Assembly: GCA_030390025.1 (NCBI GenBank)
Contig: CM059432.1
Coordinates: 10,230,001-10,294,000, forward strand
Source: Squalus acanthias
Taxonomy: Eukaryota
Length of the DNA stretch: 64,000 bases
Reading direction: 5' to 3'
Position numbers and translations under genes: made by a program. Position 1 is the stretch's first letter. Each line of letters begins with the position of its first letter. Below the pieces are notes generated by a model that saw nothing but the letters and a program-made list of their open reading frames with translations, did no database searches and had not been told where the DNA came from. Positions 12,726 to 13,735 of the stretch are shown here, in pieces.

Positions 12726-13735
12726 ACAACAACTTGCATTTATGTATTTTTTCATTCATTTGTGGGATGTGGGCGTCGCTGGCAAGGCCAGCATTTATTG
12801 CCCATCCCTAATTGCCCTTGAGAAGGTGGTGGTGAGCCGCCTTCTTGAACCGCTGCAGTCCGTGTGGTGAAGGTACTCCCACAGTGCTGTTTGGGAGGGA
12901 GTTCCAGGACTTTGTCCCAGCGACGATGAAGGAACAGCGATATATTTCCAAGTCAGGATGGTGTGTGACTTGGAGGGGATGGAGTTCCTATGTGCCTGTT
13001 GCCCTTGTCCTTCCAGGTGGTAGAGGTCGTGGGTTTGGGAGGTGCTGCTGAAGAAGATGACTCGTCTGTGGGACAGCTCTCCCAATTTTGGCACGTAGTC
13101 CCCAGATGTTGGTGAGGAGGAGTTTGCAGGTTCGAATGGGCTGGTTGTGCCTTTGCCGTGTCCGTAGCCGGTGCCGAGTGGTCCGTCCGGTTTATTCTTA
13201 CTGTTTTTCACAGCGGCTTTTTTACAACTGAGTGACTTGCTAGGCCATTTCAGAGGGCAGTTAAGAGTCGACCACATTGCTGTGGGTCTGGAGTCACATA
13301 TAGGCCAGACCGGGTAAGGATGGTAGATTTCCTTCCCTAAAGGGCATTAGTGAACCAGATGGGTTTTTACAACAATCCGATAGTTTCATGGACTGATACT
13401 AGCTTTTCATTCCAGATTTCTTTAATTAAATGAATTTAAATTCCCCCGCAGCCTGTGAGTGGGATTTGAACTCACGTCTACTGGATTAGCTAGGATCCAG
13501 TAACATAACCACAATGCTACCGCTCCTTTAATGGAGTGAAACGTTCCAAGGCACTTCAGAGGACCGTAATCAACCAAAATTTGACACTGAGCCACATAAG
13601 GAGATATTAGGACAGGTGACCAAAAGCCTGGTCAAAGAGACAGGTTTCAAGGAGCGTCTGAAAGGAGGAGAGAGAGAGGTGGAGAGGCGGAGAGGTCTCA
13701 ATATATATCCCTGGCAGCTATGAAGGCGGAGGTCT
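12726..13735 (-). mobile_element. L2 3' end interrupted by a tRNA-headed element
   Basis: ACAACAACTTGCATTTAT at 12726-12743 resumes as CCTTTAA..CAAAATTTGACACTGAGCC at about 13525. Confidence 0.7.
12746..13525 (-). mobile_element. tRNA-headed element with endonuclease-like ORF start and LINE-A tail, copy 2
   Basis: A box TAGCATTGTGG, B box GTTCAAATCC, shared body, then KLLLTNIWGL/VPKLGELSHRRV (about 13125-13059) fused to about 310 bp of LINE-A 3' end. Confidence 0.85.

Follow-up and report, generated by a model that had tools for sequence, protein, structure and literature searches.

Textbook accounts separate LINEs, which are expressed as polymerase II (Pol II) mRNAs, from SINEs, which are short polymerase III (Pol III) RNAs, and Kojima 2024 describes LINEs as using Pol II and SINE length as limited by Pol III processivity (PMC10886601). 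An autonomous LINE with a SINE-type promoter would collapse this split. The nearest described systems each resemble in part the element analyzed here, a Zenon LINE of the CR1 group whose autonomous form already carries a tRNA-derived head. [quoted passage not shown] The bipartite-LINE SINEs Bov-tA, CoeSINE4, and SINE1-1_EBu combine a tRNA head, a LINE 5' part, and a LINE 3' tail through internal deletion, yet unlike Zenon they gain the head after the deletion (Kojima 2018, PMC5786205; Kojima 2020), and in the passages of PMC5786205 covered such derivatives are reported only from RTE, Ingi, Vingi, and R2. T+ SINEs such as B2 and Ere end a tRNA-headed element with AATAAA, a T run, and an A tail and, like Zenon, show shortened T runs in daughter copies; they are short, non-coding, and reported from placentals only (PMC11240701), whereas most Zenon tails have a single T, with AATAAA ~40 nt upstream. 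Among non-SINE retroelements, TRIMp3 (Cassandra, Helenus, and Ajax) has small-RNA-derived Pol III promoters comparable to the Zenon head, but its members are of LTR type, at most 1.3 kb long, and non-autonomous (PMC10886601).

The window, a 64,000-nucleotide stretch of the spiny dogfish (Squalus acanthias) genome, contains on its minus strand (13527-12747) a single internally deleted copy of a ~3.28-kb LINE. The LINE in question is an autonomous elasmobranch Zenon element with a single ORF. The A box, B box, and NIWGL motif with one frameshift, and the fusion to the final ~310 bp of the element, are all present where the initial annotation had placed them. The tRNA-derived head (13455-13527) best matches tRNA-Thr(AGT) among the 3 isotypes tested, retains a duplicated anticodon arm only in part, and contains an A box (TAGCATTGTGG, 13509-13519; one change relative to the family sequence TAGCRTAGTGG) and a B box (GTTCAAATCC, 13462-13471). 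Downstream of the 5' untranslated region (UTR), the start of the APE endonuclease (EN) with motif I, N-I-W-G-L (13058-13128), opens with Cys-Lys (13128-13123) and carries a 1-nt insertion that places the frameshift between LLTNIWGL and VPKLGELSHR. Other copies have the same motif inside a complete APE domain, which bears out its earlier reading as APE motif I.

The deletion junction (13056-13058) has no microhomology and marks the absence of ~2.49 kb of EN and reverse transcriptase (RT) sequence, corresponding to positions 499 to 2994 of a full-length copy (L088). Among 60 loci compared, this exact junction was found at the window locus only. Past the junction (13058/13056) lie the last ~310 bp of the LINE, which are common to eight other tail copies in the window: the 3' end of the ORF with its C-terminal ~80 codons (12808-13056), the stop codon TAG (12810-12808), a 3' UTR stem-loop with AATAAA (12764-12808; fold z of -2.8) that is likely the RT recognition site, and a GAAT repeat with an A tail (12747-12763). 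The copy interrupts an L2-like repeat at its 3' end (family D16; minus-strand flanks 13522-13700 and 12746-12726), and this repeat gives a view of the empty site; ~3 target bases were lost and no target site duplication (TSD) was formed. The expectation that copies would lie inside one TSD pair did not hold, either here or for the family, whose copies are not flanked by TSDs.

A head/UTR query on the source genome gave 5,500 first-look candidates, of which 40 were scored and 39 non-self matches were extended to 7 kb; this query contained an ORF-proximal stub and was thus biased toward LINEs. All 39 head-anchored copies entered EN. Twenty-five were full-length (head, EN, RT, and the same tail, ~3.1 to 3.4 kb), 2 were nearly so, 5 were internally deleted, and 7 broke off; the idea in the initial annotation that head copies would continue through EN-RT to the same tail was thus borne out in 25 of 39. 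With a body-only query (30 of 40 matches fetched), 15 loci ran into the ORF, 5 were internally deleted (the window copy included), and 10 were SINE-sized. In the reverse direction, all 30 EN-anchored loci (30 of 40 matches fetched, query copy included) led upstream into the same UTR, 19 of them reaching its first 16 bases and 11 being truncated inside it, and no alternative common sequence was found upstream of EN in these 30. As had been proposed, the head is therefore the constant 5' terminus of an autonomous LINE that has a single ORF and lacks ORF1; full-length copies showed neither a non-tRNA 5' UTR nor an ORF1. Chance adjacent insertion at one locus, the outcome that the initial annotation had allowed for, is ruled out, since the head is a high-copy repeat and the full-length copies are colinear. 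In an older LINE subfamily (~70%), every one of 16 extended loci was 5'-truncated short of the UTR, and heads of older lineages were recovered by motif search. Assembled contigs of 4 runs, consulted for RNA-level evidence, showed only the same element boundaries and SINE-type joins.

Pfam searches on the family returned PF14529, PF03372, and PF00078, that is, APE and RT in one ORF, and the catalytic motifs are kept in 26 to 34 of 40 copies. The column majority of 40 full copies gives a single frame that stays open for 937 codons between the endonuclease Cys and the stop, preceded by ~330 nt of UTR with no ORF1 and followed by a 3' UTR of 44 nt. In these 40 copies, non-CpG variants present in at least 4 copies comprise 58 synonymous and 46 nonsynonymous changes and 0 stops, compared with 420 synonymous changes, 1,110 nonsynonymous changes, and 86 stops among singletons (46:58 versus 1110:420; Fisher p = 6e-10, singleton stops counted). 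Because the shared variants are so poor in nonsynonymous changes and so free of stops relative to singletons, the headed lineages must have evolved under selection for the protein. At 3.28 kb and with a selected ORF, the full-length element does not belong to the SINE class, whose members are non-autonomous, under ~700 bp, and non-coding; all three properties apply to its short derivatives.

These derivatives are abundant. The source genome holds at least 1,691 exact pattern matches in which the UTR core is joined to the tail within 60 nt, at many different junctions, and the window itself contains two SINE-sized copies, one with the head, the UTR core, and the last ~100 bp (8175-8600, plus strand) and one with the head, the UTR, an ORF-start stub, and the last ~120 bp (55910-56394, minus strand). 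An older head variant (~81%) occurs mostly in SINE-sized copies, often with an ORF-start stub, and in other copies this stub leads into EN. Because the older SINE-sized copies keep this stub, short elements appear to derive from headed LINEs, and to have done so repeatedly. The alternative offered by the initial annotation, a SINE carrying both LINE ends, thus holds insofar as the window locus, like thousands of SINE-sized copies, is a non-autonomous deletion derivative of the LINE.

The abundance of head-plus-tail copies (including the 10 of 30 body-anchored loci), together with the lack of a wholly open ORF in any individual copy among the 39 extended loci, would also suit a scenario in which a differently headed master moves the headed full-length copies, these being mere passengers in the form of SINE-LINE chimeras or of non-autonomous bipartite elements. 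We regard this as highly improbable and already largely refuted: the EN-anchored loci offered no such master's 5' end, the headed lineages bear the mark of purifying selection, the same head begins the published consensus in five species (PMC13343379), and the stub in older SINE-sized copies points to descent from the LINE. Three loci (L288, L292, and L298; around 1460-1800) have an old head/UTR followed by a different shared downstream sequence in place of the Zenon tail, possibly by a tail swap or by insertion into another SINE. Known SINE bodies were also compared by weak tests: the 66-bp Meta-domain that directly follows the tRNA-Thr head of MetaSINE showed no likeness by eye to the bivalve alignments, and four 10-mers were absent from the supplement; the Deu and UCON3 bodies gave no match by short motifs or by eye.

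Whether the family had already been described, a question raised by the initial annotation, can be answered in the affirmative. A 2026 survey (GBE) names elasmobranch Zenon elements of 2.9 to 3.3 kb without ORF1 and with poly(A) tails, which it gives as typical of all Zenons, and its related consensuses come from white shark (CarCar), whale shark (RhiTyp), catshark (ScyCan), dogfish (SquAca), and stingray (HypSab_Zenon-1) (PMC13343379). Three exact window motifs are present in Supplementary Table 2 of that survey, in the SquAca_Zenon-1/2/3 rows, and by eye the first 400 nt of the window family match the published consensuses. In the portions covered, the main text does not use the terms tRNA, polymerase, promoter, or Pol III, the supplement text does not use tRNA, and there is no account of the head, T-run depletion, AUG-less start, or SINE derivatives. 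Judged against these passages, what is new here is the reading of the head as tRNA derived, the loss of T runs, the AUG-less start, and the SINE derivatives. Our literature search, which had Repbase, Dfam, and most subscription journals outside its scope, returned no description of a Pol III-driven or tRNA-headed autonomous LINE, of a tRNA-headed Zenon, or of a retrotransposon's internal ribosome entry site (IRES), and the architecture is not described in the sections covered of Kojima 2024, Luchetti 2017, Nishihara 2016, Kojima 2020, Martelossi 2024, and Luke 2013.

In a quick tree that held no named Zenon references, the element fell outside the CR1-like clade of the same genome and beside invertebrate-type single-ORF relatives. 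The best database relatives (metagenomic, non-shark) are 46% identical over the RT region, and protein fragments of close similarity are found in Heptranchias, Heterodontus, and Cetorhinus. Zenon fragments P0230 and P0237 are annotated within host-gene isoforms, a basking shark MyoD family inhibitor domain protein and a sevengill shark proteasome assembly chaperone 2, which reflects either exonisation or mis-annotation.

The 5' boundary of the family is sharp at GGGAAC, which is the tRNA +1 position. Rfam scored the head as tRNA in 6 of 6 copies at 21 to 25 bits, below the gathering score of 29 and hence as a degenerate tRNA; an ARAGORN search of the window found no tRNA gene, and the head fold has a z of -1.05. 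Against tRNA genes of the source genome, with Thr, Lys, and Cys compared, head copies with one anticodon arm match Thr(AGT) best (z of 7.7 and 5.0), and Cys scores equal to Thr in two copies with a duplicated arm. The promoter boxes lie just inside the 5' end at tRNA-like spacing, with an exact B box in 30 of 40 copies and an A box with at most 2 mismatches in 29 of 40. By eye, in their first 400 nt, all five published shark and ray consensuses open with the two promoter boxes, TRGCNTAGTGG (A) and GTTCRAATCC (B; the ray consensus is one base short here), and both boxes are kept across species while the spacer between them diverges (PMC13343379). The same kind of inspection of two hagfish and one coelacanth Zenon found no A or B boxes in the first 400 nt, where T4 is present, and upstream of metagenome relatives the B-box motif was found at 0 of 25 loci and a tRNA match at 0 of 18 loci scanned. 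Since the non-shark relatives have neither a B box nor a tRNA match, the head was probably acquired in elasmobranchs. As a separate observation, a tRNA-Thr(AGT)-type motif occurs in long tandem arrays of ~2.06 kb in the source genome (C26, C27, C319, C460, C603, C959, and C1017; 126 exact matches).

A sharp end at tRNA +1 would also be expected if the head acted at the RNA level, with read-through from host promoters and an RNase P-like cleavage setting the 5' end. Self-cleaving ribozymes at the 5' end offer a precedent in other clades such as R2/RTE (Kojima 2018, PMC5786205), and the uncapped product would likewise need AUG-less, cap-independent translation. This route is nevertheless very unlikely: the cloverleaf is broken by each of the three measures above (ARAGORN, Rfam, and fold z), it is the promoter boxes rather than the stems that are kept across species by eye (PMC13343379), and processing would leave the depletion of T runs without an explanation.

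That depletion bears directly on which polymerase reads the element, as vertebrate Pol III halts at runs of four or more T (PMC11240701). On the sense strand, the column majority of the 40 full copies has 0 T4 runs versus 4.0 expected (p = 0.012) and 7 T3 runs versus 19.9 expected (p = 0.002), whereas A4, G4, and C4 (14, 9, and 11) are all at expectation. The 54 T4 runs in these 40 copies are mostly private, each being common to at most 3 copies. T4 density is 0.14 per kb in 122 ORF pieces of the element (natural open stretches from copies that descend from few masters, so that pooled counts are not independent), compared with 3.2 per kb in 22 CR1 pieces of the same genome and 4.6 per kb in 27 ORFs of headless metagenome relatives, in which T4 is at chance level. 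Older copies (65 to 79% identity) have 17 T4 runs versus 43 expected. Codon choice follows the same direction, with a TTT:TTC ratio of 98:408 in the element versus 117:105 in the comparison set (p = 0.06 against the nearest relative), and Phe makes up 1.9% of the protein versus 3.0 to 4.6% in 13 of 14 protein relatives. Under codon-aware nulls at the family level, only 1.9 T4 runs are expected (p = 0.11 to 0.13), so the T4 test alone is not significant; codon-aware T3 counts in the ORF are 5 versus 11.3 (p = 0.006) and versus 15.4. The T4 content of the published consensuses, like their cross-species covariation, was judged by eye in the first 400 nt. One distant Zenon-like relative (P0022; 972 aa on a 3,487-nt contig) is likewise Phe-poor at 1.6% and may be an independent T-avoiding lineage.

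Together, the head and the T-run statistics suggest that Pol III probably transcribes the full-length element. The chief competing account gives the captured tRNA/SINE head the role of Pol II promoter, enhancer, or TFIIIC site, with the RNA being a capped, polyadenylated LINE mRNA on which translation reinitiates, or uses a near-cognate start, after an ATG-GCC-TAG mini-ORF. It sits well with the AATAAA that lies in the 3' UTR and recurs at the majority of tail ends, with the poly(A) tails reported as typical of Zenons (PMC13343379), with the nonsignificant T4 absence under codon-aware nulls, and with the good context of the ATG-GCC-TAG and its conservation in all five species by eye (PMC13343379). 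We consider it unlikely, because it does not predict the strand-specific loss of T3 and T4, the avoidance of TTT, and the low Phe content, none of which is shown by headless relatives or CR1, nor does it predict A and B boxes kept at tRNA spacing with a SINE-like +1.

The 3' ends fit either polymerase. Of 158 ends, 130 have a tail of the form GAA(T)n(A)n, where n is 1, 2, 3, 4, 5, and 6 or more in 79, 20, 12, 7, 6, and 6 of the 130. At least four T are thus present in 19 tails, and the single T of the commonest class gives AATAAA plus poly(A). In 7 cases in which the element had inserted into another repeat, the empty site lacks the (T)n(A)n tail, which hence derives from the element, and all 7 insertions are within 4 nt of blunt. 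A TSD search found exact duplications of at least 6 nt in 2 of 60 elements, equal to shuffled pairs. This tail pattern is consistent with termination at a T run followed by adenylation, and the common single-T end fits Pol II equally.

The UTR offers no in-frame ATG fit to serve as a start of translation. Near the ORF there is only one ATG in frame, which in 23 of 38 copies runs into GCC TAG and later into TAA, and both stops are absent in at most 3 of 38; with TAG and/or TAA blocking most copies, this upstream ATG was rejected as a start. An ACG was set aside since, by eye, the other published species do not conserve it, as was a -1 frameshift out of an overlapping frame, whose slippery A run is not conserved. 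The frame resumes at a GCT 30 codons upstream of the endonuclease Cys, and GCT or ACT is in frame in 60 of 79 copies. By eye, ~150 nt ahead of this GCT are almost invariant from ray to sharks, while the linker just before it is A-rich and variable, being 1 nt shorter in whale shark with the GCT frame still kept (PMC13343379).

In the window copy, this candidate cap-independent initiation element occupies 13212-13359 (minus strand, ~150 nt) and is predicted to form a long irregular hairpin (13359-13287), a small hairpin, and an anticodon-like hairpin. The last of these (13228-13253) has a 7-nt loop, C-T-AGC-A-A, and holds the only in-frame ATG, with TAG one codon later. Its loop AGC is complementary to the conserved GCT (13212-13214), which marks the first sense codon region past the in-frame TAA (13224-13222); in the window copy, the frame started at GCT is broken. 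Loop AGC occurs together with the downstream GCT in 58 of 76 copies, and 9 others are explained by CpG decay to ACT. The second loop base varies among lineages (T in 64, C in 11, and G in 10), and one stem base of the hairpin varies between G-C (45) and G-U (36 of 85).

The fold as a whole has modest support. In the UTR core, 91.5% of cells pair, and only one well-populated pair is compensatory, being U-A in the young and A-U in the old subfamilies (26 and 17 copies), probably through a single event. Covarying pairs do not exceed in number what shuffles give (429 of 500), no compensatory change was seen in the AGC:GCT pairing, RNAalifold prefers another weak structure for the core, and the single-sequence fold has a z of -0.15. 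An alternative in which GGTTG pairs with the triplet that precedes GCT was discarded for want of an enclosing stem. The sequence GGCAG right after the head (~13455-13445) can form 6 to 7 bp with an apical loop CTGCC of the core (~13325-13315) in all five published species by eye (PMC13343379), covariation at this pairing being confounded by CpG decay.

The arrangement recalls the type 6 (intergenic region) IRESs of dicistroviruses, in which pseudoknot PKI imitates the pairing of an anticodon loop with a codon and translation starts at GCU or ACN without initiator tRNA, and of which types 6c to 6e measure 126 to 168 nt (PMC10516663, PMC10275262, and PMC12221177). Like these, and types 6c to 6e especially, the UTR core has ~150 nt, a long irregular 5' hairpin, an A-rich variable linker, a 3' anticodon-like hairpin with a complementary triplet, and a non-AUG frame at or after GCU. 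Its loops read UAAUG and GCCUA, a partial match to the L1.1 motifs U[G/A]A[U/C]C and UGCUA. Unlike type 6 IRESs, the core has a loop-codon pairing of only 3 to 4 bp without covariation, no PKII or PKIII partner was found in it, and Rfam returned no match in the UTR to a known IRES or to an HDV-like ribozyme. In the passages covered, type 6 IRESs are reported from RNA viruses only, and the string "retrotranspos" is absent from the part of PMC12221177 covered. On these grounds, we treat a type 6-like IRES in the UTR core as a lead and not as membership in that class.

A model built from these sequence comparisons would run as follows. TFIIIC would bind the head, and Pol III would, with good probability, read all 3.3 kb, the reading frame, which is also Phe-poor, having been cleared of T runs to escape termination. 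The RNA would end within a T run, either of the tail or of the flank, and then receive a short A tail. Given Pol III synthesis, the uncapped RNA would quite probably be translated by way of the structured UTR core; that the hairpin base-pairs through its AGC loop with the downstream GCT as in type 6 PKI and sets the frame without initiator tRNA is a possibility we hold tentatively. As established LINE biology would suggest, the protein would bind the 3' stem-loop, and insertion would proceed by target-primed reverse transcription. Because promoter and tail share the same RNA, any internal deletion would yield a ready-made SINE. We judge it likely that the window holds a deleted Zenon whose full-length RNA is Pol III made and is translated without cap or AUG. 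The full version, in which Zenon left the Pol II/cap/AUG route through a Pol III promoter, a terminator-free 3-kb frame, and a counterpart of a tRNA-mimicking IRES, is doubtful.

Should Pol III drive Zenon, the element would be a natural long protein-coding Pol III transcript (a gene of ~970 aa) in a vertebrate, kept since the shark-ray split and seeding SINEs by simple deletion. Such a gene would make testable the reach of Pol III for coding RNA and the way in which protein is made from it. In the conserved 150-nt core one would have a candidate for a compact cap-independent initiation element of non-viral origin. Deletion, as opposed to template switching, would provide a direct route of SINE birth, which bears on the origin of SINE bodies (PMC5786205).

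Elsewhere in the window, 5'-truncated Zenon copies that are 84 to 93% alike lie on the plus strand at 517-897, 11510-11830, 28519-29507, 30317-30577, 35079-35404, 36707-37365, and 42113-42353 and on the minus strand at 62536-63351. Another tRNA-headed SINE, which we take to resemble SacSINE1/Deu-SINE, lies at 11846-12330 (minus strand) with about ten similar copies and has no similarity to the Zenon head at an E value of 0.01. Open fragments of other LINEs, presumably CR1-like, L2-like, and in one case RTE/Vingi-like by their motifs, are present at 50071-50883, 51568-52320, 57821-59325, 62034-62498, and 41116-41628 and served as T4 controls. GC-rich tandem arrays with units of 19 to 21 nt occupy 32897-33745 and 44862-45189.
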